A DNA stretch of 44,710 nucleotides from Sphingobacteriales bacterium (GCA_043780395.1 JAYWCR010000025.1:1-44710), one strand, 5' to 3'; numbered from the stretch's first letter, positions 11,760 to 43,193 are shown. Translations and numbers: made by a program. Notes: a model not told the origin generated them from the letters alone.

Positions 11760-12125
11760 TCAAAAATCCATGGTCTTGTCAAGCTGGAACTGTACAGACC
11801 TGATAAGTTCATTGATATGAAATGGCTTTGGAATATAGGCATCAGCTCCGCAATCCCAGGAAACTTCCTTTATATTTTTATTGGCTGAGATCATAATGAC
11901 CGGGATATTGCGGGTCTTATCCTCTTTTTTAAGCCTTTTGCAAATGCTGTATCCATTTACCCCAGACAGGTCTATATCAAGAAGAAACAGGTCAGGATAT
12001 TCATTTTCCAGATTTTTACCATCAGAAGAAGGTATTACTTCGAAGCCCTCATTTTCAAGGATCAAACAAAGAACTTCCAAAATATCCGGATCATCATCTG
12101 CTACTACAATTCTTTTTTTTTCCAT
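11760..12125 (-). CDS. Stand-alone response regulator receiver domain (CheY-like)
   Basis: 121 aa with 'IVVADDDPDILE', 'DLFLLDIDLSGVNG' (phospho-acceptor Asp region) and 'ADAYIPKPF'. No output domain. Confidence 0.85.
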   Translation of the reverse strand: MEKKRIVVADDDPDILEVLCLILENEGFEVIPSSDGKNLENEYPDLFLLDIDLSGVNGYSICKRLKKEDKTRNIPVIMISANKNIKEVSWDCGADAYIPKPFHINELIRSVQFQLDKTMDF

Positions 12126-12206: not shown

Positions 12207-12875
12207 TTATGAAACAGTATTTTTTTCTTCTTCTCTGGTAAAACGAAACTGACCTCTGATACTTGCCTGGTGGTGTAAATTTATTGCTTGCCGGAGGGCT
12301 GCAAAATTAAACGTTGAATTTGTCCCGCAATCAAGCATCTTAAAATAAAGTGAAGGTTTAAGACTTTCCATATACTCTATAAGGTTCGAGCTCCATATCA
12401 ACTGGCATTTACCTTTCACCGCCGGGATAATTTCAGAAATTCCTTCCTGGACCTTTATTTGCCTTACATAAATTGATTCAAGCTGTCCCTGTGGGAACAT
12501 AAGCAGCACATTGCCGGGTGTTTCAAGGATCTCTGCGGCGTAACGGATGCTTTCTGCAACTGAACTCGTACCTGGAGATACTGAGAAAGAACCTGCATAG
12601 CGCAGCCAGCGGTTCTTTTTCATCTGCTTCTCTAATGACATAATATAGAGCCGGCCCGCTGTCTGCTGTTTTCTTATGGCATGATTGCAGATATAGAATG
12701 CCAGAATCCCGTCCCAGAAACTGAAATGATTGCACATAAGCAAATACGAATGCCCGTCAAGCAACTCAACCCCCCGGGTTTCAATTTTATTGAAGCTTCG
12801 TTTCAGGCTCTTGTCGATGAACCAGGAAACAAGCCTGAAAAGAAAAGGGGAAAGGGGCTTGGCAGTTATGATCAT
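12207..12875 (-). CDS. PlsC/LPLAT-family acyltransferase (lysophospholipid acyltransferase-like)
   Basis: HX4D catalytic motif 'NHFSFWDG' plus 'FPQG' (block III-like). The ATG overlaps the upstream stop (ATGA at 12872-12875). Confidence 0.7.
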   Translation of the reverse strand: MIITAKPLSPFLFRLVSWFIDKSLKRSFNKIETRGVELLDGHSYLLMCNHFSFWDGILAFYICNHAIRKQQTAGRLYIMSLEKQMKKNRWLRYAGSFSVSPGTSSVAESIRYAAEILETPGNVLLMFPQGQLESIYVRQIKVQEGISEIIPAVKGKCQLIWSSNLIEYMESLKPSLYFKMLDCGTNSTFNFAALRQAINLHHQASIRGQFRFTREEEKNTVS

Positions 12876-13696
12876 TGCAGGTATTGGATTAAAATATCGG
12901 CCAGTTGCTGGTTCACCAGCTCATGCCCTTCATCAAGTACCAGCTTGGTGGAATGCTGAAGCCTGGGCAGAACTTTACTGCCTATTACGGCAGGGTAAAT
13001 GCGGTCTTTTTTTCCAAAAATAAACAGACTTTTAATAGCAGCCCTGTTCATTGAGGCAACAAATACTTCCCCATCAAGGTCCAGATGCCGCAAGTAAGTA
13101 ATACAGGCATAAAATGCCAGCCTCAATTCAGGAGTTTCTATTTCTTTCATAAGAATTTCCTGTGCCCGCTGATCAATAATGCCAAGGTTTTTACAAAGAT
13201 TTAACAGCCGTATCATGCCCTGATCGCTTGTGCTTAATTTGCGGAGCAGAAAATTGGCAGCCCTGTTCTTGCTCAGGAAATATAAAAAGGGTTCGGGTCG
13301 CAGGGAAGAAGGAGCGATCGCAATATATTCATCTACTCTGGAGGCACATAGCTCAATGATGCTTGATGCATAATGGGTACCCATTGAGTAGGCGATCATC
13401 GAAAAACGGTCAATATGCTGGGATTCACAAAAATCCAGTATGATCGATTTAAGCTCTTCCTTGCTTATACCCCTGAGTATTTCATCCATGCCCTTGTTGG
13501 AAAGCCGGGTCTGTTTATGAAAAAAAAGGTCAAACCCATAAAAAGTAAAGGTGCTTCCAAGGCCTTCTTCAAGCACTTTAAACTGTTTGCCATGCATACC
13601 ATACCCATGAAAGCCAAGCATATGCCTGCTTCCATGCCCGAATTTATAAAAATGAATGCGCGCTGCCGGATGGTCAAAATAATGTTCTGTCATCAT
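12872..13696 (-). CDS. Alpha/beta-fold hydrolase (candidate thioesterase/esterase)
   Basis: 'LGFHGYGMHG' oxyanion region and nucleophile elbow 'IAYSMGT' (sm-x-S-x-G). 274 aa. Confidence 0.7.
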   Translation of the reverse strand: MMTEHYFDHPAARIHFYKFGHGSRHMLGFHGYGMHGKQFKVLEEGLGSTFTFYGFDLFFHKQTRLSNKGMDEILRGISKEELKSIILDFCESQHIDRFSMIAYSMGTHYASSIIELCASRVDEYIAIAPSSLRPEPFLYFLSKNRAANFLLRKLSTSDQGMIRLLNLCKNLGIIDQRAQEILMKEIETPELRLAFYACITYLRHLDLDGEVFVASMNRAAIKSLFIFGKKDRIYPAVIGSKVLPRLQHSTKLVLDEGHELVNQQLADILIQYLQ

Positions 13697-13700
13697 CTGA

Positions 13701-14117
13701 TTAAATGCGTACGGGTTCTGGGATGCTCAGGCAGGCAATAGCCCAAGCATACTGGCCTTCATGACTTATACTCAAACTGACCTTAAAGGTTGCAAAAGCC
13801 GCCGGAAGATTTACGAAAGGCTGTCCGGCAGGCATGTAGCGTATGATCTCAATTTGTTTCCAGCCTGGCATATTCGTAGAAACTTGTTTTAGCGCTTTGT
13901 AAACAGCCTCTTTAGCTGCCCAGGTAGAGGCATACCGCAACAGGGGTTCTGAAAAAGAATGGCAGTAAGCGAGCTCGGCAGGGCTGTAGACGCGGTCTAT
14001 AAATTCTGGGGTAAGGGAGTGGGTAAAAGCGGGCAGATGAACAAGGTCATTACCAAGTGCGAGGCAGGCTCCCTGCAGGGTCTGGCCCAGCTGCGCGTTC
14101 AGGGTTTCAGCTTTCAT
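13701..14117 (-). CDS. AcpS-type 4'-phosphopantetheinyl transferase (holo-ACP synthase)
   Basis: 'LGNDLVHL' (GxD), 'WAAKEAVYKAL' and 'SISHEGQYAWA' match AcpS motifs. The start is trimmed to MKAETL (14117). The track ORF's extra 42 codons lie inside the upstream FabI-like gene. Confidence 0.7.
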   Translation of the reverse strand: MKAETLNAQLGQTLQGACLALGNDLVHLPAFTHSLTPEFIDRVYSPAELAYCHSFSEPLLRYASTWAAKEAVYKALKQVSTNMPGWKQIEIIRYMPAGQPFVNLPAAFATFKVSLSISHEGQYAWAIACLSIPEPVRI

Positions 14118-14919
14118 CTGTTGGCACGCCCATAATGTTAAAGCCACCATCCACATAATGGATATTTCCTGTGACAGAGCCTGAAAGATCAGAAAAATAA
14201 TAAAGTGCAGCCCCCCCAACATCCTGGCCATCGATATTTCCAAGTGGAGCCATCACCTTACCCAGTTTGCGCAGTTTGCGGACTCCATTTATACCTCCCG
14301 AAGAACTTGTCATCACCAGGCCCGCAGAAATAGCGTTGACCCTGATGTTCTGGCTTCCGAAATAATCTGCCAGATAGCGCATGATATTTTCCAAAGCTGC
14401 CTTCAGTATACCCATGCCTGCATATCCTGGAAAGACCCGCTGTGAGGCATTATAGGTAAGAGTAAGGATAGAGGCACCTGGAGCAAGCAGGGGTTCAGCT
14501 ACCCTGCAGATGCGCAGCAGCGAATAGGCAGAAATATTAAAGGCATCCATCAGGGCCTCAAAGGGGATATCCAGGTATCTGGAAGGCGCTTCCCTGCTTC
14601 CATAGAAATTTGCACACATGACCTGCGGATTTCCATAGGCCACTGCATGGAGCATATAATGTATGGGCCCAAGACCTGAATGAATGGCCGTTAAAAATGA
14701 TCTTATCTGGTCTTCATCCCTGACATCTACCTCTGCTGCATAGCTTTTGTCAAGGCCATGCTGATCCATGAGAAAGAGTACATCTTCACGTGTATCCGCA
14801 GTATAGCTGAGAGCCAGGGTGCAGCCTGATTCTTTAAGTTTCAGGGCAATGGAAAAAGCAATGGAGCGTTCGTTTCTGACGCCGAACAGTACGGCTACTT
14901 TCTGCGAATTATCTATCAT
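14107..14919 (-). CDS. fabI: Enoyl-ACP reductase, FabI-like (SDR)
   Basis: 'VLFGVRNERSIAFSIA' and 'TYNASQRVFPGYAGMGILKAALENIMRYLA' align with the FabI Y-x6-K active-site block. 'RVNAISAG' is also present. Confidence 0.8.
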   Translation of the reverse strand: MIDNSQKVAVLFGVRNERSIAFSIALKLKESGCTLALSYTADTREDVLFLMDQHGLDKSYAAEVDVRDEDQIRSFLTAIHSGLGPIHYMLHAVAYGNPQVMCANFYGSREAPSRYLDIPFEALMDAFNISAYSLLRICRVAEPLLAPGASILTLTYNASQRVFPGYAGMGILKAALENIMRYLADYFGSQNIRVNAISAGLVMTSSSGGINGVRKLRKLGKVMAPLGNIDGQDVGGAALYYFSDLSGSVTGNIHYVDGGFNIMGVPTDES

Positions 14920-16277
14920 GCGTTATATTTTGAAAGGGACATGGCACTGTTCGTGCCTCCAAAGCCATAGTTCAGGCAAACAATGCGGTTAATTTCTTTG
15001 CTCAGGCTTTGCTGGGGTATGAGATCCCGGAAAGCCTCAAGAGGCTGGCGGGGACCTTTCCAGCCAGGGGCAAGCTGGAAGGGTTCAGACTCCTGGTTCA
15101 GCTGTCCGGAGTTCAGGCAGGGGCTTACTTTCTGTTCTTTCAGCATAAGCAGCGCTGCAATACATTCCACAGCACCAGCGGCGCCCAGCATATGGCCGAA
15201 CTGCGACTTAGGTGCTGCAATATGATAGCCTTCAGTGCCCATGAAATCAACTACACTCAGAAGCTCAATGGCGTCACCGATCGGGGTGGAGGTTCCATGA
15301 ACTTTTACCACATCAGGTTTCTGAAGTTCTGTCTCACCTGAGGGTTTCATCAGACCCTTCCACAAACGTTGCTGCCCTCCAAAGGAAGGTGCAAACATAT
15401 TGCCATCACCGTCTGAATTATTAAAATATGAATCTATGACAGCCAGAATATTTGCTCCCCGGGCCTTTGCATGTTCCATTTCTTCGAGGGCAACAATGCC
15501 TGCGCCGAACGAGCATACAAAGCCGTTCCTTTGTTTATCAAAGGGTCTGGAGCTTTCGCCGGGTGAAAACCCTTTGCTGAGTACCTGCATGGCATCAAAA
15601 CCTATAAAAGTTTCAAGGGAGGTCTCTTCGATGCCCCCTGCAAGTACACGGTCCTGGATGCCATGTTTGATGAGCCGGTAGGCATGTCCGATATTTCCGA
15701 GGCCTGTGGCACAGGCTGAAATGATCGATTCGCAGACGCCCTGGTTTTTGATCAGGCATGAAACATTTGCTGCCTCGCGGTAGCTCATGCTGCGGTCAAC
15801 GGTATGAGAGCCTACAATTCTTGTTTTTCCCTTCAGTTCAAAGAAATTATGCCATCCGGCGCGTAAAACCTTATTCCCTGAGCCCCCGGAGCCGATCACA
15901 ACACCTGTCTGCTCTGACTGTACTTCGCCTGTATTCCAGCCAGCCATTTCAATGGCCTCCAGTGTGGAGATCATCGCCCAGATGCTGCCTGCATCTGCAG
16001 TGGCAAGGTTAATATCAGGGATGCGGCCGGCCCTGTCAATATATGTTTCCGGATAGTTTTTTACAAGCGATGATTCTATCACTTCAAGCTGCATTTCTTC
16101 ATCCGTTACATAGCCTGAAACCGTAGAGCGTATATTCTTTCCATAGGCAGCTGCTTCCTGCCAGCTTCTGATAAGACTTTTATTGGAAAACAGGCTGTTA
16201 CTGAATTCTTCAAGCCCCGAACAGGTGGGGAAAACCCCTGCCATTCCTACAATAACGACCTTGCGATCTGCTGCCAT
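14916..16277 (-). CDS. Beta-ketoacyl-ACP synthase (elongating KS with a Cys-His-His triad)
   Basis: 'SACATG' active-site Cys, 'VHGTSTPIGD' and 'FGHMLGAAG' His motifs. The N-terminus 'VVIVGMAGVFP...EFSNSL' is PKS-like. The stop overlaps the next start by 4 nt. Confidence 0.9.
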   Translation of the reverse strand: MAADRKVVIVGMAGVFPTCSGLEEFSNSLFSNKSLIRSWQEAAAYGKNIRSTVSGYVTDEEMQLEVIESSLVKNYPETYIDRAGRIPDINLATADAGSIWAMISTLEAIEMAGWNTGEVQSEQTGVVIGSGGSGNKVLRAGWHNFFELKGKTRIVGSHTVDRSMSYREAANVSCLIKNQGVCESIISACATGLGNIGHAYRLIKHGIQDRVLAGGIEETSLETFIGFDAMQVLSKGFSPGESSRPFDKQRNGFVCSFGAGIVALEEMEHAKARGANILAVIDSYFNNSDGDGNMFAPSFGGQQRLWKGLMKPSGETELQKPDVVKVHGTSTPIGDAIELLSVVDFMGTEGYHIAAPKSQFGHMLGAAGAVECIAALLMLKEQKVSPCLNSGQLNQESEPFQLAPGWKGPRQPLEAFRDLIPQQSLSKEINRIVCLNYGFGGTNSAMSLSKYNA

Positions 16278-16284
16278 GAAATGA

Positions 16285-16533
16285 TTATTTTTTTAAGATG
16301 AGGTCAATGATGTCTTTAACCTTTGATCCAAGGCCGTCAATATCCTCATCTTCAAATTCAACACCAAACTTTTGCTCAGCCTTGGCGGCTATATTGATCA
16401 TCTCTGTGGAGGGTGTGTTCAGGTCAGTGATAAAATCAGTCTGCTCGGTAATTGTTTTCAGCTTTGCAGGGTCAATAGTTCTTACAGTTCTTAATATTTC
16501 TACCAAACCTGCTAAAATTTCTTCTCTAGTCAT
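16285..16533 (-). CDS. Acyl carrier protein (dedicated, non-canonical attachment motif)
   Basis: 82 aa and acidic. 'DLNTPSTEMINIAAKAEQKFG' aligns with the ACP '[21 protein letters not shown]', which puts the Ser at residue 42. Confidence 0.8.
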   Translation of the reverse strand: MTREEILAGLVEILRTVRTIDPAKLKTITEQTDFITDLNTPSTEMINIAAKAEQKFGVEFEDEDIDGLGSKVKDIIDLILKK

Positions 16534-16539
16534 GCTTAC

Positions 16540-17085
16540 TTATTTAATGAGGTCCATTTTCAATGCCCGCCCTGTAACCTGGAACAGTTCTGCCACCAGA
16601 ATGAAATCTTCAGGCAGTGAATAATCCAGCAGTTTCTGCACAGTAAAATCTTTTAGACAGAAAGAAAGATCTGTTCCTTCAGGAACTTTATAAATGCGGC
16701 CATCTGCCACCATCTGCCTGAATTTATAAAATTTTATATTTGCAAGGCTTATAAAAGTTTCTCCTGCTTTTATATAGCTGTGAAAGTAAACATTTCCAAT
16801 ACTTATGAATGCAGGAATATATCTTTTACCTACTTCCTGCATGCTTATCTGCTGTTTCTGACTTTCCAGAAAACCTGCACAGGATACAATGCTGGCCTGA
16901 GCAAAAGCCTCTATCTGGTCGACACCGCGAAAAATACCAAAATGGTCGGCTACATCTTTCCCGGTAGGCGTATAACTTGCTATTATGCCTGCAAGAGGCT
17001 CATGCCATAAAAAGGCATTGATCATCAGTTTTGAAGGTCCGTAGCTGAGCACATCTGCGGGAGCTGATCCCAGGAGGTTTTTCAA
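16540..17085 (-). CDS. Hotdog-fold dehydratase (FabZ/FabA-like), divergent
   Basis: 'DHFGIFRGVDQIEAFAQAS' resembles the FabZ 'HFP..PV.PGV...EA.AQ' block with catalytic His and Glu. It starts with TTG, which overlaps the FabG-like stop (TTGA at 17082-17085). Confidence 0.6.
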   Translation of the reverse strand: MKNLLGSAPADVLSYGPSKLMINAFLWHEPLAGIIASYTPTGKDVADHFGIFRGVDQIEAFAQASIVSCAGFLESQKQQISMQEVGKRYIPAFISIGNVYFHSYIKAGETFISLANIKFYKFRQMVADGRIYKVPEGTDLSFCLKDFTVQKLLDYSLPEDFILVAELFQVTGRALKMDLIK

Positions 17086-17804
17086 ATCAGCCCCCCGTTT
17101 ACCGGAATGTTACTTCCATTTATATAAGCTGCTTTTTCTGAAATGAGAAAAAGAATAGTTTCTGCAATTTCTTCTGTGCTTCCAAAGCGCCTGAGCGGAA
17201 TCATGGCCTCATATCTTTCCTTATCAGAAGTTCCCAGCCCATCGGCCATGCGGGTATGTATAAAGCCTGGAGAAACACTCAGTATCCTTATTTTATGAGA
17301 TTCATGCAGATAGGAGGCTTCTTTAGCCAGCGACTTTGAAAAAGCAATAAGCCCCGCCTTTGTAGCCGCATACACCGACTGAAAGGCATTGCCTGTTTCT
17401 GCCACACAGGAACTTATATTGATGATCACACCTTCTTTTTTAAGGTTAAAGATTTTCATGGCTGTTTTACTGATCATCACAGGGGCTTTCAGGTTTACCT
17501 GGATCATTGTATCAATTTCTTTTTCAGGTTGAAAAAGAAGTGATTTATCAAAAGACAGGCCGGCATTGTTTATAACTGCATAAAGAGATTCACTATGGTC
17601 TTGTTTGAGCTGCCTGCAAAAAGCCTGAAGCTGGTCATTCTCGGAAAAATCTGCACAGAGCGCATACTGCCCCGGCTGAAGTTCGGGCAGGTTTTCAGAC
17701 CTTGAGGCATGCAGGATCAGGTCATAATGCGGAGCAAGTGCCCTGGCAATAGCAAGGCCTATGCCTCTCCCTGCTCCGGTGATCAATACCTTTGGTCTAC
17801 TCAT
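17082..17804 (-). CDS. 3-oxoacyl-ACP reductase, FabG-like (SDR)
   Basis: 'ITGAGRGIGLAIA' cofactor motif, 'NNAG', and 'YAATKAGLIAFSKSLA' (YxxxK). Confidence 0.85.
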   Translation of the reverse strand: MSRPKVLITGAGRGIGLAIARALAPHYDLILHASRSENLPELQPGQYALCADFSENDQLQAFCRQLKQDHSESLYAVINNAGLSFDKSLLFQPEKEIDTMIQVNLKAPVMISKTAMKIFNLKKEGVIINISSCVAETGNAFQSVYAATKAGLIAFSKSLAKEASYLHESHKIRILSVSPGFIHTRMADGLGTSDKERYEAMIPLRRFGSTEEIAETILFLISEKAAYINGSNIPVNGGLI

Positions 17805-17830: not shown

Positions 17831-19435
17831 CTAGTTAATGCTTCCCGGCACTTGGTTTTCAGGCTCAAACCTGTTCATCAGGTTTAGCAATACGCCATTT
17901 GTCCATCCGAAGCCATCCTGCAAGCTATATTCTCCGCCCCCAGCTTTCAAATTTGTATCAATAACATTGTACTTCTCTACCAGCTTGCCTGTCTGTTCAA
18001 AGACATTTTTATTGAGCCTGATCCAGCGTTCTGCAATTGTTGCGGCAAGCTCTTTAAAACCATAATTCATCAGACCGTCTATGGCTATATATTCCAGCGG
18101 AGCCCAGCCATTGGGTGAGTCCCATTGCTGGCCTGATCGGTTAAGTGTGGTTACCAGCCCCCCGGCCTGTAAAAATCCGGATTTAAGGCGTTCGGCAGTT
18201 TTCAGGGCCTGGAACTGGGAGGCAATTCCGAATTCCAGAGGGAAAACACCCGCCAGGGTTTCCACAGACTCAATTTTTTCTTTTTTGAAATTATAATCCT
18301 TGAACCAGCCCTTCTTATCATCCCAGCAATATTTAAGGATTGCCTTGCGCCGGGCAGCGGCCTTTTTACGGAAATTCAGGCTTGAAACTTTATCGCCTGA
18401 AATAGAATAAGACCTTGCTATGGTTAGCTCCAGGTGATAAAGCAGGCAGTTCAGGTCTACGGCAAGCAGGTCAGTGGTCTGGATGCCGGAAAGGCTTCCG
18501 GAATCACCAAACCAGCGCGTGCTGAAATCCCAGCCCGATTCAGCTGCCGCCCTGATATTGCGGTAATAATCAGCAGGCAGTTCTTTGGTTTTTAGTACTG
18601 ATTCTACATCCTGCCTGTATGATTCTTCACGGGGCTGGTCACTGCTATCCCAATAGCGGTTCAAAAAGGATCCATCAGGTAACTTAACCAGGTTTCTATA
18701 CGCATGGCCAGCGCCCAGTGTATCCTTCCCCTGCATCCAGAAATTATATTCGGCCAGGAGTTCCTTTCTGTAAAGAGGCAATATCGATTCACCCTTGTCT
18801 TTGGCAAGCAGTTCTACCATGAGCGAAAAAAATGGTGGTTGTGAACGGCTCAGGTAATAGGTACGGGTGCCGTTGGGGATGAATCCATACCGGTCGATCA
18901 GGTTGGCAAAGTTCCGGATCATATTGTCGATCATGCCGGTCTGCCGGCTTTCCTGCAGGCCAAGCATTGTAAAATAGGAATCCCAGTAATAGATCTCCCG
19001 GAAACGCCCGCCGGGAATGATGAAATCGGCATTTAATGGTAACAGGGAAGAATGGGCTGCTGTATCATGGTACCTGTACAGTACCTGCCAGAGTGTATCT
19101 ATATGGGCACGGATCCCTTTCTTAAGGTCTGTTTTGAAGTTAATTCCGCTTCCTTCAGGAGGGCTGAAATTCCTTGCGGTAAATTCAGCGAGGCTGAAAC
19201 CCGGCCTGTTCTTTTCAGCGGTATACCTTTGCATGATCAGGGCAGGATCTACCTTCGGACTCATATCAACGAAGGTTTTATTGTCAGGAAACACATTGTT
19301 AAGCTGCACAGCTTCAAAAAGGCCTGGATAAAGCTGCCGGGGTGTAAGGGTCTGGGAACTGCCCGGCTGGCTCAGCAGGCAGCAGAATGCAATGAAGAAC
19401 AGCCTGTAAATATTGCTGCGTAGTGATCTTTTCAT
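17831..19435 (-). CDS. treA: Periplasmic trehalase (GH37)
   Basis: Signal peptide plus trehalase signatures 'PGGRFREIYYWDSYF' and 'QWDSPNGWAPL'. Confidence 0.92.
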   Translation of the reverse strand: MKRSLRSNIYRLFFIAFCCLLSQPGSSQTLTPRQLYPGLFEAVQLNNVFPDNKTFVDMSPKVDPALIMQRYTAEKNRPGFSLAEFTARNFSPPEGSGINFKTDLKKGIRAHIDTLWQVLYRYHDTAAHSSLLPLNADFIIPGGRFREIYYWDSYFTMLGLQESRQTGMIDNMIRNFANLIDRYGFIPNGTRTYYLSRSQPPFFSLMVELLAKDKGESILPLYRKELLAEYNFWMQGKDTLGAGHAYRNLVKLPDGSFLNRYWDSSDQPREESYRQDVESVLKTKELPADYYRNIRAAAESGWDFSTRWFGDSGSLSGIQTTDLLAVDLNCLLYHLELTIARSYSISGDKVSSLNFRKKAAARRKAILKYCWDDKKGWFKDYNFKKEKIESVETLAGVFPLEFGIASQFQALKTAERLKSGFLQAGGLVTTLNRSGQQWDSPNGWAPLEYIAIDGLMNYGFKELAATIAERWIRLNKNVFEQTGKLVEKYNVIDTNLKAGGGEYSLQDGFGWTNGVLLNLMNRFEPENQVPGSIN

Positions 19436-20732: not shown

Positions 20733-22703
20733 ATGAAAACATCCATTACAAATCAGATTGGTATAATAGATCTCGTAATTTTTTCATTTTTTGCTCTGTT
20801 TTTTTCTTCACTTGTTGTGAATGCACATGCATTTTCCTTTCATACCGCTGATTCTTCTACGAAAGTTCTTACCGGTTCTTCAAAAACCTATATCCAGCAA
20901 GGCGTTAAATTAAACGGTCTTGGTTCGGTAAAAGAAGCCGGGCTTGGATATTCCATTTCTGTAAGTGGAGATGGAAATACAGCTGTTACCGGGGGTTTTT
21001 CGGATAACGATGGTATAGGTGCAGCATGGATCTTTACCCGCAGAAATGCTTCCTGGGTACAGCAGGGAAGCAAGCTCATAGGAACTGGTGCTGTAGGAAT
21101 GGCACATCAGGGTATTTCGGTTGCTATCAGTAATGATGGTCATACGGCTATAGTAGGTGGGTTTACAGATAATTCAGGAATTGGTGCTGCATGGATCTAT
21201 ATCCTGCATGAGGGTACCTGGATCCAGCAGGGAGAAAAGCTGGTTGGCTCTGACTTTACCGCCACGCCCAATCAGGGGATTTCTGTCTCTATAAGCAGGG
21301 ATGGAAATACGGCCCTTGTGGGTGGCCTGCATGATCATATTAACAAGGGTGCTGCCTGGGTCTATACACGGGTAAATGGTACCTGGACCCAGCAGGGAAT
21401 GAAACTTATCGGAAGTGCTGGTTCGGAGAATGATCTGCAGGGTTGTGCCGTAAGTATAAGCGGTGACGGCACTACAGCCCTGGTAGGCGGGTTCGGCAAT
21501 AATTCAACAACAGGGGCAGTATGGGTTTTTGCCCGGAGCCCTCTGGGCTGGGTGCAGCAGGGTTTGAAGCTGGTGGGTACCGGCGCGGGTAATGGAGGGC
21601 AGGGTCTTGCAGTTTCTCTGAGTAATGACGGAAATACCGCTCTTGTTGGTGGGTACGCAGACAATCACAATACCGGCGCCGCATGGATCTTTTCCCGCTC
21701 AAGATCTGCATGGTTACAGCAGGGAGCAAAAATTGTAGGTACAGGAGCCGTCGGTGCAGCCAGCCAGGGCCGGGCGGTCGCTTTAAGCGCGAATGGAAGC
21801 ACAGCCATCATTGGAGGCTATTATGATAGCCTGGGTGCAGGTGCGGCCTGGATCTTCAAATGCCATAAAGGCAGCTGGTCACAGCAGGGTTCCAAGATCG
21901 TAGGTCAGGGTTTTGATAGATCACAGCAGGGCCGTTCAGTGGCCCTTAGCTCAGATGGAAGTACAGCCATGGTGGGCGGCTCTGGTGATTCCAGTGGGGT
22001 AGGCGCTGCCTGGGTTCTTACGGGTGAAGGCGCAGAGGCTGATATTGACAGTTCTGAAGATGAAATAGCCTCAGCTCCGCTAAAAGTAACGTATACTCCC
22101 CTGAGCCGTGTGTTCTCAGCAGATCTGGCAAGCCTGACTACCGTTCAGCTAGAATCTGAATTATCGTTCAGCCCTGCTACACTGGATTACCTGGTAACTG
22201 TTGAAAATTCAATCATTTATTATACAATTCTACCTCTTGCTCACGATTCAGATGCAAGGATCAGTTTGAACGGCGTTCTGCTGAAGAAAGGGGCTTCAGG
22301 TACCATGTCTCTTGGAATAGGGTCAAATGTATTTCATGTCAGTGTGCTTGCTGCAGACGGGATCACCAAAAAAGAATATCTGCTGACCATAAACAAACTT
22401 GCCGCTCCAGCCAGACAACAGGGAATTCAGGCAACAAATATTCTGACCCCCAATGGCGATGGGGTAAATGATACCTGGTTAGTGAAAGATGTTCAGAACT
22501 ATCCCCGCAATCATGTAGCGGTTTATAATTCTGCCGGGGGGCTTGTCTTTGCAAAAGCAGGTTATGCCAATGAATGGGGCGGTACCTTTAAAGGCCGCGT
22601 CTTACCAGAAGGTTCCTATTATTATGTGGTTGATCTGGGAAATGGTTTTGTGTTCAGAGGCTTTATTTCGATCATGAATACTTTCATTGCTTCGAGTATC
22701 TGA
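20733..22703 (+). CDS. Secreted seven-bladed beta-propeller repeat protein with a beta-sandwich spacer and a T9SS type-B C-terminal sorting domain
   Basis: N-terminal hydrophobic signal, then seven ~54-aa repeats ('..QQG.KL.G.G......G.SV.S.DG.TA.VGG..D..G.GAAW.F'). The C-terminus 'LTPNGDGVNDTWLVKDVQNYP...VYNSAGGLVF...EWGGTFKGRVLPEGSYYYVVDLG' matches the gliding-motility-associated C-terminal domain pattern. Confidence 0.8.
   Translation: MKTSITNQIGIIDLVIFSFFALFFSSLVVNAHAFSFHTADSSTKVLTGSSKTYIQQGVKLNGLGSVKEAGLGYSISVSGDGNTAVTGGFSDNDGIGAAWIFTRRNASWVQQGSKLIGTGAVGMAHQGISVAISNDGHTAIVGGFTDNSGIGAAWIYILHEGTWIQQGEKLVGSDFTATPNQGISVSISRDGNTALVGGLHDHINKGAAWVYTRVNGTWTQQGMKLIGSAGSENDLQGCAVSISGDGTTALVGGFGNNSTTGAVWVFARSPLGWVQQGLKLVGTGAGNGGQGLAVSLSNDGNTALVGGYADNHNTGAAWIFSRSRSAWLQQGAKIVGTGAVGAASQGRAVALSANGSTAIIGGYYDSLGAGAAWIFKCHKGSWSQQGSKIVGQGFDRSQQGRSVALSSDGSTAMVGGSGDSSGVGAAWVLTGEGAEADIDSSEDEIASAPLKVTYTPLSRVFSADLASLTTVQLESELSFSPATLDYLVTVENSIIYYTILPLAHDSDARISLNGVLLKKGASGTMSLGIGSNVFHVSVLAADGITKKEYLLTINKLAAPARQQGIQATNILTPNGDGVNDTWLVKDVQNYPRNHVAVYNSAGGLVFAKAGYANEWGGTFKGRVLPEGSYYYVVDLGNGFVFRGFISIMNTFIASSI
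20889..22040 (+). repeat. Seven tandem ~162-nt (54-aa) intragenic repeats (propeller blades)
   Basis: Each repeat starts at a '(Y/W)xQQG' motif and ends at 'GAAW(I/V)(F/Y)'. Counted directly in the translation. Confidence 0.8.
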
Positions 22704-24402: not shown

Positions 24403-25143
24403 TCAGATTCCTGAAGTAATGAATGAACCAAGTATGGCCAGTACTTCTGTCTGTGAAAGCACCTCGTCAAAAGATTCAGAAGCTGCAATATTCGTGATTT
24501 CAGTATGCCCGTTAATTCCTTGTATCTGGATCTGTGCCTGAAATGTATTGTCTTCATTCAAATACACATTCAGCAGGTTTGCATTCTCGGTGATGATAAC
24601 CGGATTTATAGACGTTCCTTCAGCCATATTCCCCGACAGGGTGATCCACGGCTTGATATTTATGCCTGATGCATTCCGGATAATACGGATATAGCCTGCA
24701 TGTCTGGCTTCTACAGAATGAAGATCTAAAAAATAAGTAAGCAGGGTCTGATTGCTGGCAAGTCTGGCCAGCTGACCCTTGTAATACCGTACCGAAGTAT
24801 CTTCAAGGACCTGTGCGGCAAGAAGAAGAGTAGCTGGATTGGTGTAGATATCAGGAAAAATTGAGTTTGCCGTCAGGTCTATGCGCATGGATGACATAGA
24901 TGGCGCTGAGGTGGTTGTTCCTGTAAACAGCCCTGTTAAAAAGTTCACATGGTTCTGCTCATCTGATCCAATGATCTTCAGGCCGGCTTGCTGGGCGGGA
25001 GTTAAAGCCAGAAAGGAAGCTGAAGGCGCTGAGGTTGCCGTTCCTGTCATCTGCTGGTAGAAAAAAAGCTCAAGCAGCTCAAAGCTCAAAGCAAAACTTA
25101 GGGTCGACAGAAGGGCTGTTGACAGGGCTGGGGTGCTTTCCAT
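24403..25143 (-). CDS. Ferritin-like domain protein, 'B2' (paralogue of 25935-26777, lacking the N-terminal signal)
   Basis: 'FELLELFFY', 'SDEQNHVNF', 'VLEDTSVRYY' and 'HSVEARHAGYIR' are collinear with B1. The shared C-terminal block is 'KPWITL...INGHTEI...ASESFDEVL'. Confidence 0.7.
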   Translation of the reverse strand: MESTPALSTALLSTLSFALSFELLELFFYQQMTGTATSAPSASFLALTPAQQAGLKIIGSDEQNHVNFLTGLFTGTTTSAPSMSSMRIDLTANSIFPDIYTNPATLLLAAQVLEDTSVRYYKGQLARLASNQTLLTYFLDLHSVEARHAGYIRIIRNASGINIKPWITLSGNMAEGTSINPVIITENANLLNVYLNEDNTFQAQIQIQGINGHTEITNIAASESFDEVLSQTEVLAILGSFITSGI

Positions 25144-25154
25144 TTATGTGGTGA

Positions 25155-25820
25155 TTAACTGCTCGGCAATGAACCGGAATCAAGTTTGGTTTTAATATAG
25201 ATGCCCTGCAGCAGGGCCAGCACCTGGGCTGGTTTTTTATGGATCTCCATGCCTGAGGCATTCAGAAGAGAAGCTCCTGAAAAAGTGCCAGGCATGACCA
25301 GTTCATGAATAAAGCTAGCATGCCTTGCCTGCACGGAGATGATCTCAGCCATGATAGTAATAAAAGCTGCTGCCTGCAGGTTTCTGGTCAGTCCGTTCAT
25401 TGCCTGAACCGTAAGGTCTTCAAAGAAAAGAGCCGACTGAAGGGTCAGGCTTCTGCTGGTAAAGTTGATGCTGGTGAAATCCAGCGCCATTGCCGGGAGC
25501 GCGTTCGAGCCCAGGGCTACTTTTAGGAATTCTCGCTGTGCAGTTTCATGTTTTAAGATATCAGACAGGAGTAATCTCTGGTCGGGGACACTTCCAGCCT
25601 TTAGTGCCTGTGTATAGAACCCTGCCTGTACCTGGCTAAGTACATAGGCATAGTTGAGAAGAGCAATATCGCCGGTTCCAAAAATATATCCGTTCGCGCC
25701 TTCACCAGCGCCACCTGCAGATTCTTTTTTACATGAATTTATATAAAAAAGTAAAAGCCCTGAGGCAAGGAAAGAAGTTTTAAGGAAATTTTTTCTGTCT
25801 ATTTTATTTATCAAGGGCAT
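25155..25820 (-). CDS. Ferritin-like domain lipoprotein, 'A2' (degenerate paralogue of 26791-27504)
   Basis: 'FGTGDIALLNYAYVLSQVQAGFY', 'HETAQREFL', 'FEDLTVQAM' and 'ISVQARHA', with a C-terminal 'IKTKLDSGSLPSS', are all collinear with A1. The start is taken at MPLINKIDRKNFLK (25820). The track ORF start (25880) abuts a terminator hairpin. Confidence 0.65.
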   Translation of the reverse strand: MPLINKIDRKNFLKTSFLASGLLLFYINSCKKESAGGAGEGANGYIFGTGDIALLNYAYVLSQVQAGFYTQALKAGSVPDQRLLLSDILKHETAQREFLKVALGSNALPAMALDFTSINFTSRSLTLQSALFFEDLTVQAMNGLTRNLQAAAFITIMAEIISVQARHASFIHELVMPGTFSGASLLNASGMEIHKKPAQVLALLQGIYIKTKLDSGSLPSS

Positions 25821-25880
25821 TCCTGTATTGCCTTTAAAGGTCAAGCATCTGCAATAATAATCCGAATTGCTCATAAACAC

Positions 25881-25916
25881 AAAAAGGGTGTCTTTATTTT
25901 AAAGACACCCTTTTTT
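25881..25916. terminator. Strong hairpin terminator separating the two ferritin-like gene pairs
   Basis: aaaaagggtgtcttta-ttt-taaagacaccctttttt: a perfect stem of about 12 bp flanked by A and T runs. Confidence 0.7.
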
Positions 25917-25934
25917 AAAAGTGGGAAACTAATC

Positions 25935-26777
25935 TTATAAACCCTTTGTTACAAAAGCCTTAGCAAGTGCTAAAACCTGATCTGTAGTCAGAATTTCATC
26001 AAAAGCTTCTGATGCTACCTTTGCATCAATCTCCATATGACCGTTAAGACCGATCAGATTCATGCCAGCCTGTGTAGTAACTTCTTCACCTGCATAGTTT
26101 GCATTTACTGCAGGGCTTCCAATACCTGTCTGGTTCAATGTGATCCATGGTTTTAGCATAGCTCCGCGTAAATGACGGATCTGACGGATATGTGCAGCAT
26201 GACGGGCTTCAACTGAATGGATGTTCAGGGCAGCTGTCAGAATAGCACCCGTACCTAAAAGGTAACCTGCCTGTCCTTTATATGCACGAACTCCTGTGTC
26301 TTCCAATGCCTGGGATACGGCAAGAAAAGTATCATAATTTGAAAATACATCAGCAAATGTTCCGCCAGCTGTAAAATCATAGGTAAAGTTTGACTGAGGT
26401 ACGGGTGTTCCACCAGCACCTGAAATAGCTGCCTGTAAGAAAACAACGTGCTTGGCCTCATCACTCACAATCAGGGCAATTCCTGCTGTATCAACAGATG
26501 GAATCTTATTACCTAACTTTTCTGTGCCCATATTGTAAAATGATGACTCAAGGTACTCAAGTGTTAGTGCAAAGTTCAGTACATCCAGCGGTCCGCGCAT
26601 TGATGTACCGGCATATGCTTTTTTGAACATGCTGCCCAGCATAAGCGGAACAGCTGCAATTGCAACTTTTCCTGCCATACCTGCAAATTCCTTCATGGCT
26701 GATCTGCGGGTGTCCATACGGCCGTAAACCTCTGGGTCTACTTCCTCAATCTTATTTAAAATGTTGTCTAAGTTCAT
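25935..26777 (-). CDS. Ferritin-like domain protein, 'B1', with a Tat-like signal
   Basis: N-terminus 'DTRRSAMKEFAGMAGKVAIAAVPLMLG...AYA'. Di-iron-like motifs are 'LEYLESSFY', 'SDEAKHVVF', 'ALEDTGVRAY' and 'HSVEARHAAHIR'. Confidence 0.75.
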   Translation of the reverse strand: MNLDNILNKIEEVDPEVYGRMDTRRSAMKEFAGMAGKVAIAAVPLMLGSMFKKAYAGTSMRGPLDVLNFALTLEYLESSFYNMGTEKLGNKIPSVDTAGIALIVSDEAKHVVFLQAAISGAGGTPVPQSNFTYDFTAGGTFADVFSNYDTFLAVSQALEDTGVRAYKGQAGYLLGTGAILTAALNIHSVEARHAAHIRQIRHLRGAMLKPWITLNQTGIGSPAVNANYAGEEVTTQAGMNLIGLNGHMEIDAKVASEAFDEILTTDQVLALAKAFVTKGL

Positions 26778-26790
26778 GACGATTTAGGTT

Positions 26791-27504
26791 TTAGGAATTA
26801 GGTAATGAACTTGCGTCCAGTTTGGTTTTGATAAATGATGAAGCAATTGCAATAACAGCCTGTGGTTTCTTTGACTGCTCCAGCGCGTTCATATCCAGAA
26901 TAGTATCGTCGGCAAACGAATTGTACTTGTTCAGATCGCGCAGATAGGTTGAATGACGTGCTTCTACAGAAACAATCTGTCCAGCCAGTGTCAGATATGC
27001 ACCACTTACAAAATACTGTCCGGCTCCATTATAGGCCTGAACTCCTAAATCTTCAAATGCCTGTGCATGTCCTAATACACTTGCACGGCTTGTGAAATCA
27101 ATTGAACTTAGGTCAAGGGTTAAAGTAGGTAGAGCTGCTGAACCCAGGGCATTCTTTAAAAACTCACGGTGGAGTACTTCATGACGTGTAATATCCGTCA
27201 GATAAATTTTTTCTTCATCAGAGATACCATTGTACCATGCTGAGCTTGCTTGTGTGTAAAAGGCTGCTTCCAATTGCTCAAGTGAATAAGCAAAGTTTAG
27301 AATAGCAATATCGCCTGTTCCAAAACTGAGTCCTTTTGAAGGAGTCATATAAGGATTGGAATCTTTCTTGCAGGATGCTACTGCAAATACTGCCAGTGCT
27401 GCGGTGGATAGACCAGCTGCTTTCAGGAAGTTTCTACGTGGAATAGACTTCATAATGCCATCCCTCGTCTCCATTTCATTTTCATCGAGAAGGTTTTCTT
27501 TCAT
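26791..27504 (-). CDS. Ferritin-like domain lipoprotein, 'A1', with a canonical twin-arginine signal
   Basis: 'IPRRNFLKAAGLSTAALAVFAVASC' (Tat motif plus lipobox). Motifs are 'LEQLEAAFY', 'HEVLHREFL', 'FEDLGVQAY' and 'VSVEARHS'. The true start may be the internal MKSIPRR at 27453. Confidence 0.75.
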   Translation of the reverse strand: MKENLLDENEMETRDGIMKSIPRRNFLKAAGLSTAALAVFAVASCKKDSNPYMTPSKGLSFGTGDIAILNFAYSLEQLEAAFYTQASSAWYNGISDEEKIYLTDITRHEVLHREFLKNALGSAALPTLTLDLSSIDFTSRASVLGHAQAFEDLGVQAYNGAGQYFVSGAYLTLAGQIVSVEARHSTYLRDLNKYNSFADDTILDMNALEQSKKPQAVIAIASSFIKTKLDASSLPNS

Positions 27505-38738: not shown

Positions 38739-40307
38739 ATGGAATCTATATTCAGATACGGTATTGACAGGCTTACGGTTGGTAAATGCCTTGATCTTGC
38801 AGAAAGGAAGATAAATGGAATTCTGGACCCTGAGGCCAGAACAAAGGTGGCTGCCTCAAGGGCTCATGTAGATCAGATCGTAAAAAGTGGTCAGGTTGTT
38901 TATGGGATCAATACAGGCTTCGGTCCTTTATGTGATACCCTGATCTCTGAGAATGATACCCGCTCACTCCAGTACAATATACTCCAGAGCCATAGTGTTG
39001 GCATTGGCAGAGCCGTACCTGAAATTATTTCAAAGATCATGATGATCACCAAGGTCCATGCCCTGGCCCAGGGATATTCCGGAGTTCGTCTTGAAACGCT
39101 GGACAGGATACTGACCTTTCTTGAACTGGGTATCCATCCGGTTGTTCCTGAAAAAGGTTCTGTTGGAGCTTCAGGTGACCTTGCCCCCCTTGCGCATCTC
39201 TTTCTTCCTCTTATAGGTATGGGTGAGGTGACCTTTAAGGGAGTTACGATGCCTGCTGGGCGGTGCCTTCAGCTCAGGCAGCTGGAGCCGCTAGTACTTG
39301 GACCCAAAGAAGGCCTGGCCCTGATCAATGGTACACAGTTTATTCTTGCCTTTGCTGTACTGGGTCTTAAGCGCATGCATACTATTCTTGAAACTGCAGA
39401 TATTGCCGGTGCTATGTCATTGGAAGGGCTTATGGGTTCCTCTCATCCATTTGATCTGCGCCTGCATTCCCTGAGGCCTTTTGCAGGAAATCTGTTTGTT
39501 GCCCACCGGTTGAGAACCTTGCTGGAAGGATCGGAAATTCTGGTCTCTCATGCAGATTGTGGCCGGGTGCAGGATCCTTACTCTCTGAGATGTATGCCCC
39601 AGGTTCATGGTGCTTCCAGAAATGCCTGGTTACATCTGAAAGAGCTTGTTACTATTGAATTGAATTCTGTCACCGATAATCCTGTGATCTTCAATGACAG
39701 GGAAACTATCAGCGGAGGTAATTTTCATGGACAGCCCCTTGCCCTGCCCCTTGATTATACCACCTTTGCGGCTGCTGAACTAGGTAATATTGCTGACCGG
39801 CGCTGTTACCTGATGACAGAGGGCCGGTTCGGACTTCCCCGGCTTCTGATCGATGAGCCGGGCCTGAACTCTGGTTTTATGATTCCCCAGTATACGGCTG
39901 CCGCCCTGGTCAGTGAAAACAAGACCTATTGTTTTCCGGCCAGTGCAGACAGTATTCCCACTTCTCTGGGGCAGGAAGACCATGTGTCCATGGGTTCTAT
40001 AAGCGGGCGCAAGCTTCATATGGTGGTAGACAACCTTGAATATATTATGGCCATAGAGCTCCTTTACTCCTCTCAGGCCCTGGATTATCGCAGGCCGCTG
40101 AAATCAACTCCTATCTTGGAAGCCTGCCATAAGCTGGTGCGTGAGCATGTCTCTTTTGCCACTAAAGACCGCATATTTTCTATAGATATAGAAAAATTAA
40201 GAACCATTGTAAGTGAAGGAATATTGCCGGCCCTTGCCTGCACAGTGTCGGAAGAAAGAATTTTGAACCTGACGGATAAAAACTATGAATGCTTCGGACT
40301 TTATTAG
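38739..40307 (+). CDS. hutH: Histidine ammonia-lyase
   Basis: MIO-forming '[15 protein letters not shown]', plus 'NGTQ' and 'QEDHVSMG' motifs. Followed by hutU, hutI and hutG. Confidence 0.93.
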
Positions 40308-43184: not shown

Positions 43185-43193
43185 TATCATATT

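Follow-up and report, generated by a model that had tools for sequence, protein, structure and literature searches.

We analysed a stretch of 44,710 nucleotides from a Sphingobacteriales bacterium (GCA_043780395.1, JAYWCR010000025.1:1-44710), a soil-type member of the family Sphingobacteriaceae; the stretch is called the window in its full length. We focused on a minus-strand operon of eight genes at positions 12207-17804 that is predicted to build an acyl chain on an acyl carrier protein (ACP) of its own. From the first gene to the last, the operon comprises:

17082-17804, minus strand: FabG-like 3-ketoacyl-ACP reductase (KR), 240 aa, at the head of the operon; Pfam adh_short_C2, 6.9e-44
16540-17085, minus strand: divergent FabZ-fold hotdog dehydratase (DH), 181 aa, TTG start; assigned by AlphaFold2 (AF2) model and Foldseek
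16285-16533, minus strand: private ACP, 82 aa, with a Pro-Ser attachment site
14916-16277, minus strand: elongating beta-ketoacyl-ACP synthase (KS) of the KAS I/II superfamily with Cys-His-His, 453 aa; assigned by Pfam
14107-14919, minus strand: FabI-like enoyl-ACP reductase (ER), 270 aa; adh_short_C2, 2.2e-57
13701-14117, minus strand: AcpS-type 4'-phosphopantetheinyl transferase (PPTase), 138 aa; PF01648; ATG at 14117 within a longer open reading frame (ORF)
12872-13696, minus strand: cytoplasmic alpha/beta-fold Ser hydrolase, 274 aa; weak Abhydrolase_1 match, conserved Ser/Asp/His
12207-12875, minus strand: HX4D acyltransferase (PlsC/LPLAT superfamily, PF01553), 222 aa, at the end of the operon

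According to the ORF coordinates, the junctions from KR to acyltransferase are a 4-nt overlap, a 6-nt gap, a 7-nt gap, a 4-nt overlap, an 11-nt overlap, a 4-nt gap and a 4-nt overlap. The TTG start of the DH agrees with the N-termini of 24 homologues, and the internal ATG assigned to AcpS is the start that its homologues use. The order KR-DH-ACP-KS-ER-AcpS-hydrolase-acyltransferase is kept throughout the Sphingobacteriaceae and is complete in at least 55 fetched loci, as mapped by tblastn of 88 loci against the window proteins, with median junctions of 3, 5, 2, -1, -11, 1 and -4 nt in the 55 complete loci, so that the 11-nt overlap of ER and AcpS is itself the median. The genes flanking these conserved loci differ. 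Complete genomes with the operon include Mucilaginibacter sp. SP1R1 (CP183226), Pedobacter sp. MW01-1-1 (CP179926) and P. heparinus. Typical identities to the window proteins are highest for the ACP (70-80%), KS (~70%) and ER (~68%), followed by KR (~62%), DH (~57%), acyltransferase (~54%), AcpS (~52%) and hydrolase (~48%). A sequence-only reading of the window had described eight minus-strand genes with exactly these coordinates and junctions, had taken them for one operon, and had assigned to them a KS, KR, DH, ER, a private ACP with its own AcpS-type PPTase, and, following these, a Ser hydrolase and an HX4D acyltransferase. The ORF list agrees with it to the nucleotide, the tight packing and the same order in 55 loci bear out the single operon, and the gene assignments hold with Pfam, NCBIfam, AF2 and Foldseek, as well as with family-wide conserved catalytic residues of the last two proteins and PF01553 matches and a PatA/GPAT-like fold of the acyltransferase.

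Elongation enzymes, carrier and off-loading candidates

Pfam matches are strong for KR, KS, ER and AcpS, and weak for ACP, hydrolase and acyltransferase. As a test for equivalogs, NCBIfam scores were compared with the curated cut-offs, and the KS was in addition placed by the ranking of hidden Markov model (HMM) and PDB scores. The KR has the KR domain in Pfam and the catalytic motif YAATK in its translation, and its best NCBIfam match, TIGR01830, reaches 192 bits versus a cut-off of 297.75 and thus stays under the FabG equivalog threshold; its orthologues are 58-67% identical and occupy the same position in Sphingobacteriaceae loci. In the KS, the N and C domains of ketoacyl-synt are detected by Pfam, and the residues ACATG (Cys), HGTST and GHMLGAAG (His, His) as well as a C-terminal GFGGTN can be read in the translation. 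The scores against the FabF/FabB models are 239-241 bits versus cut-offs of 387-630, and the best PDB matches are FabB structures (178.8 bits), slightly above FabF. KS orthologues are 67-77% identical across Pedobacter, Mucilaginibacter and Daejeonella, and the Prokaryotic Genome Annotation Pipeline (PGAP) labels them as 'family protein' and not as FabF. The ER matches twelve FabI equivalog models, all of them under the cut-off (best 199.7 versus 441 bits); in the PDB, Thermus FabI (1ulu) ranks first and FabI proteins from many species come next, and its Y-x6-K block reads YAGMGILK. Judged by its sequence, the ER is a true FabI-family protein.

For the DH, there is no match in Pfam or NCBIfam. 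Its AF2 model has a mean confidence (pLDDT) of 86.8, and the top 50 Foldseek matches of this model are all FabZ, with probability 1.0, target-normalised TM scores of 0.69-0.82 and 15-18% identity. When a profile of 25 DH homologues was compared with the PDB sequences, FabZ likewise ranked first, albeit weakly (E = 0.06). His48 and Glu59, the catalytic residues, are invariant and lie in the motif DHFGxFRGVDQIEAFAQA. On the basis of the model, the protein is a FabZ-like hotdog protein with catalytic His and central-helix Glu, and since there is no Pfam FabA/FabZ match, it belongs to the FabZ fold and not to the FabZ sequence family.

The carrier protein deviates at its most characteristic position. 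Its attachment site DLNTPSTEM has Pro-Ser where the canonical motif is Asp-Ser-Leu (DSL), and DLxxPS(T/A)E with an invariant Ser is conserved in 82 ACP sequences, so that the mark of a DSL-type AcpP is absent; a DSL-type ACP was not found anywhere in the ~1.5 Mb of fetched loci either. The Pfam PP-binding match (18.3 bits) is under the gathering score, and all NCBIfam AcpP models are under their cut-offs (53 versus 84 bits; TIGR00517, 23.8 versus 70.45 bits). The best PDB matches are mycobacterial AcpM (49.8 bits), and the other ACPs listed, mitochondrial ones included, reach at most 32 bits. AcpS exceeds the family cut-offs of PF01648 (51.7 versus 25 bits) and TIGR00556 (54.3 versus 45.35 bits), whereas all equivalog models remain under theirs (37-52 bits versus 60-195). 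With a single ACPS domain of ~120-140 aa that scores above the family cut-off, it is by sequence an AcpS-type PPTase. Its best PDB matches are the PPT domain of the yeast fatty acid synthase (FAS), Corynebacterium Ppt1p and M. tuberculosis AcpS. The nearest solved relatives of both carrier and PPTase are therefore components of actinobacterial or fungal FAS and not proteobacterial AcpP/AcpS. The Pro-Ser site may be the reason why a dedicated PPTase is kept.

In the hydrolase, an HG motif (oxyanion), the YSMG elbow with its nucleophilic Ser, the Asp of FIFGxxD and a late His are each at least 95% conserved in 60 sequences. Its only named matches are a weak one to Abhydrolase_1 and an N-terminal, BioH-like one (BioH, 32 bits versus a cut-off of 207), and it is a candidate type II thioesterase or editing enzyme. 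In some Mucilaginibacter/Sphingobacteriales loci (L001/L085, L054, L066 and L072; loci are numbered with L), the hydrolase is missing while the acyltransferase is kept, and because these genomes do without it, the hydrolase appears to be dispensable.

In case of the acyltransferase, the window protein itself is slightly under the PF01553 cut-off (20.1 versus 23 bits), but 25 of 25 family members match (best 2.2e-9). Residues N49, H50, S52, F53, D55 and G56 are invariant (NHFSFxDG, containing HX4D; NHFSFWD in the window), and motif III is a variant, with PQGxLES where FPEGT is usual. A sequence search against the PDB gave no match, and relatives were only recovered by fold comparison: the AF2 model (pLDDT 83.3) has its best folds in PatA (5oce, 5f2z) and the plastid glycerol-3-phosphate acyltransferase (GPAT; 1k30, 8ia1) with probability 1.0. 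The protein is thus a member of the PlsC/LPLAT superfamily (PF01553). Database names call it PlsC (1-acyl-sn-glycerol-3-phosphate acyltransferase), but these names are automatic, and there is no NCBIfam match.

A core cassette with changing partners

The DH family serves as a tracer of the system. It comprises 433 matches, the names of which are all of Sphingobacteriaceae type or lacking. In a set of 1.84 billion representative proteins, it accounts for 40 clusters at 50% identity, and it is confirmed in at least 140 of 185,579 species genomes, patchily outside the Sphingobacteriaceae, with these counts being lower bounds. The 80 loci listed are mostly from Sphingobacteriaceae (Pedobacter, Mucilaginibacter, Daejeonella, Pelobium, Pseudopedobacter, Desertivirga); the others come from a few metagenome-assembled genomes (MAGs) of Chitinophagaceae/Chitinophagales, one Zobellia species, and Opitutales/Verrucomicrobiota MAGs.

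The widely shared unit consists of DH, ACP and KS, usually with KR, ER and AcpS and often with a FabA-like gene, and is found sporadically in Chitinophagaceae, Zobellia, Verrucomicrobiota and metagenomes. Outside the Sphingobacteriaceae, the usual composition is KR, a FabA-type protein (~230 aa) with an HF..DPVMPG..QD motif, DH, ACP, KS, ER and AcpS (L004, L006, L007, L014, L080, L092). According to HMMs built from the loci, the hydrolase is confined to Sphingobacteriaceae loci, the acyltransferase family is confined to sources of Sphingobacteriaceae type, and no counterparts of the two were detected outside the loci that carry them. As the HMMs find neither outside the Sphingobacteriaceae, hydrolase and acyltransferase are lineage-specific additions to an older core. 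An alpha/beta hydrolase encoded upstream of the KR in Zobellia was considered as a homologue of the operon hydrolase and dismissed, as the HMM detects no homology and the two are unrelated. The eight genes, which the sequence-only reading had treated as the unit, do keep their order in Sphingobacteriaceae, but the unit that is shared more widely is smaller and lacks these family-specific add-ons.

What accompanies the core elsewhere are mostly other enzymes that could consume an acyl chain. A type III polyketide synthase (PKS) heads the operon in L004 and L007, the latter also having a convergent MMPL transporter and a LolA-like gene. A FeeM/Acetyltransf_5-like protein of ~215 aa follows AcpS in L006 and precedes KR in L014 and L092, with weak Pfam matches (E = 3.5e-6 in L006 and 3.4e-3 in L092), and a clearer Autoind_synth/Acetyltransf_5/FeeM-like protein follows a DH-ACP-KS-x-AcpS arrangement without ER in L096/L097. 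In L005, a NAD_binding_4 reductase is encoded convergently. Acyl-ACP is a donor that type III PKSs, FeeM/LuxI-type enzymes and PF01553 acyltransferases can all use, and these arrangements are most simply read as a portable module for the production of acyl-ACP, to which different consumers are attached. In two Opitutales/Verrucomicrobiota MAGs (L009, 8028-11873; L010, 5-3547), only ~60 nt lie between the DH and the KS that directly follows it, and an ACP gene is missing from this position; an ACP-like match in L009 is located ~3.5 kb away on the opposite strand.

Several observations concern the surroundings of the operon. The sole recurrent neighbour is a secreted tetratricopeptide repeat (TPR) protein of 493 aa, encoded convergently and directly after the acyltransferase in 45 loci (L001, 14162-15640, minus strand; L003, 14968-16449, minus strand; L082, 14903-16384, minus strand; and 42 other loci); no homologue of it was found in the window. 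Beyond the TPR gene, 2-3 kb past the acyltransferase, a hybrid nonribosomal peptide synthetase (NRPS)-PKS ORF with an adenylation domain and then a KS domain starts in some Mucilaginibacter loci (L028, 17091-20534; L043, 15378-19310; L082, 16740-20561), which is probably an independent gene cluster. Its KS domain accounts for the 26-28% tblastn matches in L028, L043 and L082 that might have been taken for a second KS of the FabF type. Insertions occur at two junctions. In four Sphingobacteriaceae loci, namely three named Pedobacter species and one MAG, two genes (166 aa and 152 aa) are inserted over ~1 kb between AcpS and hydrolase (L031, 13486-14502; L071, 13432-14390; L086, 9098-10053; L087, 13431-14386). 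Read by eye, they look like an Xre/DUF2384-type antitoxin and a RES-domain toxin and not like pathway genes, and the flanking genes are apparently left undisrupted. In three Mucilaginibacter loci (L028, 12157-12480; L075, 12186-12410; L083), KS and ER are separated by 220-330 bp of inserted non-coding DNA, and in L075 two overlapping short ORFs therein repeat one peptide (…ALTLLMRCRNKFGMT…), which suggests a small repeat element.

Within the window, the operon is flanked by housekeeping genes without relation to it, and no other FAS genes were found in the rest of its 44.7 kb. A trehalase of periplasmic type (PF01204, 1.7e-140; 17831-19435, minus strand) ends 26 nt ahead of the KR start on the same strand, and a single-domain response regulator (11760-12125, minus strand) starts 81 nt past the acyltransferase stop. 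Both could be co-transcribed with the operon in this window; in the other genomes that were compared, neither these two nor LolA or FtsK are conserved as operon neighbours. At 24403-27504 (minus strand), four Ferritin_2 (PF13668) genes stand in tandem, one of them with a twin-arginine (TAT) signal, and in Mucilaginibacter sp. SP1R1 a Ferritin_2 pair (L001, 4757-6364) is likewise found at a distance of a few kb from the operon, which is a loose synteny. A 656-aa FG-GAP/cadherin-like protein with a CHU_C type IX secretion signal (20733-22703, plus strand) fits the Bacteroidota origin. At 38739-44195 (plus strand), a PF00221 aromatic amino acid lyase, urocanase, an amidohydrolase and an arginase-family protein form a four-gene run that is read as a histidine-utilisation set (HutH, HutU, HutI-like, HutG-like). 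As the lyase adjoins urocanase, it is assigned to the hut genes and therefore is not a tyrosine ammonia-lyase of the flexirubin/aryl-polyene kind.

Relation to known dedicated-ACP systems

No description of the operon was found in the full-text literature, with most subscription journals being outside of its coverage, which is no more than an absence of evidence and agrees with the sequence-only reading, where the operon was a candidate for an undescribed lipid system; only analogues came to light. That reading had compared its logic to the rhizobial AcpXL/FabZXL/FabF1XL-FabF2XL/LpxXL proteins, which constitute a very-long-chain acyl system for lipid A. Both systems have a dedicated ACP, and FabZ and FabF paralogues in the same cluster as an acyltransferase that would install the product on a lipid, and both would rely on housekeeping enzymes for missing steps. 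The operon differs in having one KS instead of two, in having its own KR, ER and AcpS, and in the lack of an alcohol dehydrogenase. Its acyltransferase matches PF01553 with a PatA/GPAT-like fold and has no match to Lip_A_acyltrans, the LpxL family, and the genes give no sign of very long chains or of lipid A as target. An LpxL-family acyltransferase and two FabF paralogues, the hallmarks of the AcpXL-LpxXL system, are thus both absent. What stands of the comparison is the dedicated ACP pathway with a dedicated acyltransferase, in line with the pairing of the core with acyl-ACP users elsewhere, but the analogy is a functional one only, as the acyltransferase is not LpxXL-like.

In mycobacterial FAS-II (AcpM, KasA/B, MabA, HadABC, InhA), there is likewise a second, dissociated FAS with dedicated ACP and FabI-family ER, and the nearest solved relatives of the operon ACP are AcpM, those of the PPTase including M. 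tuberculosis AcpS. The KS, in contrast, is nearer to FabB/FabF than to KasA (137 bits), the phylum is another one, the off-loader belongs to PF01553 while mycobacteria use Pks13, and there is no sign of products of meromycolate length. Aryl-polyene, flexirubin and xanthomonadin clusters share with the operon the discrete KS, ACP, KR and hotdog DH as well as an LPLAT acyltransferase by which the product would be attached to a lipid. Unlike the aryl-polyene and flexirubin clusters, which are marked by two KS-family genes, the lack of an ER, and an ammonia-lyase or CoA ligase, the operon has a single KS and an ER, and it has no genes for an aryl starter, thioesterase, glycosyltransferase or export; the sequence-only reading had argued against this type of cluster from the ER, which is borne out by the single KS, the ER and the missing starter genes. 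The amxACP/amxFabZ cluster of anammox bacteria follows the same logic of a lipid pathway with dedicated ACP.

Two further systems resemble the operon in gene content. The FabN/FabO module of E. faecalis uses the housekeeping ACP. In fabI-fabN-fabO, as with E. coli FabA/FabB, a FabI-type ER comes together with a dehydratase homologous to FabZ and a synthase of the KAS I kind, and the module is described as part of membrane fatty-acid synthesis (PMC9671860). The likeness is one of gene co-location alone, with private ACP, AcpS, KR, hydrolase and acyltransferase being added in the operon. In Coxiella burnetii, CBU_0034-0038 (ACP, FabB, FabZ, FabA, FabH) were horizontally acquired and are shared with Spirochaeta africana, with a function that is predicted only (PMC5423948). 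This is also a mobile accessory set with FabA, FabZ, ACP and a FabB-like KS beside inherited FAS genes, and the relatives of the cassette outside the Sphingobacteriaceae combine the same four gene types; compared by gene types, the Coxiella operon differs by the presence of FabH and by the lack of KR, ER and AcpS. In Azotobacter, the type I synthases ArsA/ArsD feed the type III PKS ArsB/C, and FeeM-type N-acyl amino acid synthases work with a private ACP. Relatives of the cassette carry just such partners, a type III PKS (L004, L007) or a FeeM/LuxI-like enzyme (L006, L014, L092, L096), whereas the window operon has neither and contains the PF01553 acyltransferase instead. By analogy, the operon would operate in the manner of lipid pathways with a dedicated ACP (AcpXL/LpxXL, mycobacterial FAS-II, aryl-polyene, anammox amxACP/amxFabZ), and on the features compared it is a member of none of them.

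Proposed pathway, alternatives and meaning

We consider it reasonably probable that the operon represents a type II FAS cassette of an accessory and orthogonal kind, active beside the ordinary FAS, in which an acyl chain is built on the private ACP and passed to the lineage-specific acyltransferase for the acylation of a lipid. The accessory character is deduced from the equivalog scores under cut-off, the AcpM-like Pro-Ser ACP and the patchy distribution. The catalytic residues of KS, KR, DH, ER, hydrolase and acyltransferase are all intact, and the PGAP names of the orthologues remain generic ('family protein', 'hypothetical' or generic acyltransferase). In the pathway that we propose, the AcpS-type PPTase would convert the private apo-ACP to its holo form, and malonyl units would be loaded by a trans-acting enzyme encoded elsewhere, presumably the housekeeping FabD. 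The KS would then condense, and KR, DH and ER would fully reduce each beta-keto group, so that iterated cycles would leave the private ACP with an acyl chain that is largely saturated. The private carrier may shield this acyl pool from housekeeping acyltransferases. Finally, the PF01553 acyltransferase would move the chain from the private ACP to a hydroxyl group of a membrane-lipid acceptor, forming an ester, and the Ser-Asp-His hydrolase could act as an auxiliary thioesterase or editing enzyme that edits or releases chains. We infer all of these biochemical steps from the genes, and likewise the malonyl loader, the primer, the chain length, the saturation and the acceptor.

Several points weigh against this reading. 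Domains of malonyl-CoA:ACP transacylase, FabH, CoA ligase, lyase, chain-length factor or exporter were not found in any of the eight proteins with Pfam and NCBIfam. The sequence-only reading had already noticed their absence, and its term 'self-contained' was nevertheless too strong, as malonyl loader and initiator have to come from elsewhere; the function therefore depends on a cross-talk that the unusual ACP might hinder. The structural matches of the acyltransferase are modest, with TM scores of 0.4-0.5. The strong conservation within the family, with the KS being ~70% identical, would equally fit a core physiological role. In Chitinophagaceae loci such as L048, moreover, the six-gene core stands alone without an adjacent off-loader, and the acyl-ACP may therefore have another fate.

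Which other functions could such a gene set have? The main rival is a branch for unsaturated fatty acids and membrane fluidity, in which the DH would be a dehydratase/isomerase, the FabB-like KS and the FabI-like ER would elongate the cis-enoyl chain, as is known of FabN/FabO/FabI in E. faecalis and of FabA/FabB in E. coli, and the PlsC-like enzyme would insert the product into ordinary phospholipid. The slightly better scores of the KS against FabB than against FabF structures agree with this, as does the co-occurrence of DH, KS and FabI-like ER in most loci, which is reminiscent of fabI-fabN-fabO (PMC9671860); versions outside the Sphingobacteriaceae add a true FabA-type gene, and for the Coxiella FabH-FabA-FabZ-FabB-ACP set a synthesis of unsaturated acids has been proposed, by homology alone (PMC5423948). 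We nevertheless regard such a branch as unlikely, unless it is understood as a refinement of the accessory cassette in the sense of a monounsaturated chain. A branch of the housekeeping FAS needs no private ACP, AcpS and KR, the Sphingobacteriaceae have lost the FabA-like gene, an isomerase activity cannot be read from sequence, and the type III PKS or N-acyltransferases that accompany the core in relatives are indicative of specialised products. This pairing with secondary-metabolite enzymes also speaks against a back-up or inhibitor-insensitive FAS that keeps up the acyl supply for phospholipids when soil competitors inhibit FabF or FabI. Resistant copies of FabF and FabI are known self-resistance devices, and a gene set that covers the whole elongation and brings its own carrier and an acyltransferase of the PlsC superfamily, together with the strong conservation in soil genera, would suit this purpose, but FabH, FabD and a PlsX/PlsY-type entry to phospholipid are missing, the hydrolase is left without a role, and no antibiotic gene cluster is linked in the window, which makes the back-up function improbable.

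Even less can be said in favour of a role in cofactor synthesis, in which the dedicated ACP would, as with mitochondrial FAS, provide a precursor, for instance pimeloyl-ACP in the case of biotin or octanoyl-ACP in that of lipoate, and the hydrolase would be a BioH-like esterase. The weak N-terminal BioH match, the high conservation of the cluster within the family and the stand-alone core without off-loader in some lineages are compatible with it, but no BioC, BioF, LipA, LipB or LipM is encoded nearby in any locus, the BioH scores are far under the cut-off, the acyltransferase would have no role, and the hydrolase is missing in some genomes; we therefore hold it to be quite improbable. The presence of KS, KR, DH, ER, ACP and AcpS could further suggest that the operon simply is the housekeeping FAS II locus of the organism. 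All bacteria of these lineages need FAS II, yet the distribution is patchy, with the low number of species genomes that have the DH family and just one Zobellia species represented in the 80 loci listed, and on this indirect evidence the operon is hardly a housekeeping locus. All six proteins are well under the curated equivalog cut-offs or, in case of the DH, without match, the ACP lacks the DSL motif and is AcpM-like and not AcpP-like, no fabD, fabH or acc gene is found at the locus, and the orthologues are named neither FabF nor AcpP by PGAP. A pigment cluster of the aryl-polyene, flexirubin or xanthomonadin type has equally little to commend it. KS, ACP, DH, KR and an LPLAT-type acyltransferase are in common, the KR has a sub-threshold match to the flexirubin FlxB model (144.9 versus 340 bits), and one distant relative adjoins MMPL and LolA-like genes, but the KS is single and lacks a chain-length factor as partner, the polyene would not survive a FabI-like ER, ammonia-lyase, CoA ligase, thioesterase, glycosyl-/methyltransferase and DarAB are absent from the operon, and the only aromatic lyase of the window is the HutH beside urocanase.

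The accessory cassette can be extended to a more far-reaching idea, which we put forward tentatively. The core (DH, Pro-Ser ACP and KS, usually with KR, ER, AcpS and a FabA-like protein) might be an orthogonal plug-in FAS that has moved between Bacteroidota and Verrucomicrobiota and serves as private acyl donor for interchangeable off-loaders, i.e. type III PKS, FeeM/LuxI-like enzymes or PF01553 acyltransferases. In Sphingobacteriaceae, it might make an unrecognised, family-wide acylated lipid with a chain unlike the bulk iso-branched acids, for example a straight or monounsaturated one.

Dedicated type II FAS-like clusters for lipids are already known, and what is special here is the combination of own ER, ACP and PPTase, the non-canonical carrier, the family-wide conservation and the modular reuse of the core. 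If the operon were merely a redundant FAS, it would be of minor interest. As a carrier pair that is orthogonal by nature, the Pro-Ser ACP and the AcpS matched to it would be of interest for pathway engineering, and the distant cassettes, with their connection to type III PKS or N-acyl synthases, suggest a reusable way to insulate a special acyl pool from primary metabolism. Sphingobacteriaceae such as Pedobacter and Mucilaginibacter are abundant in soil and rhizosphere, and their lipidomes still hold unidentified polar lipids and aminolipids. A family-wide operon with a full second elongation cycle, an ACP/PPTase pair and an acyltransferase would be a genetic handle on one such lipid.

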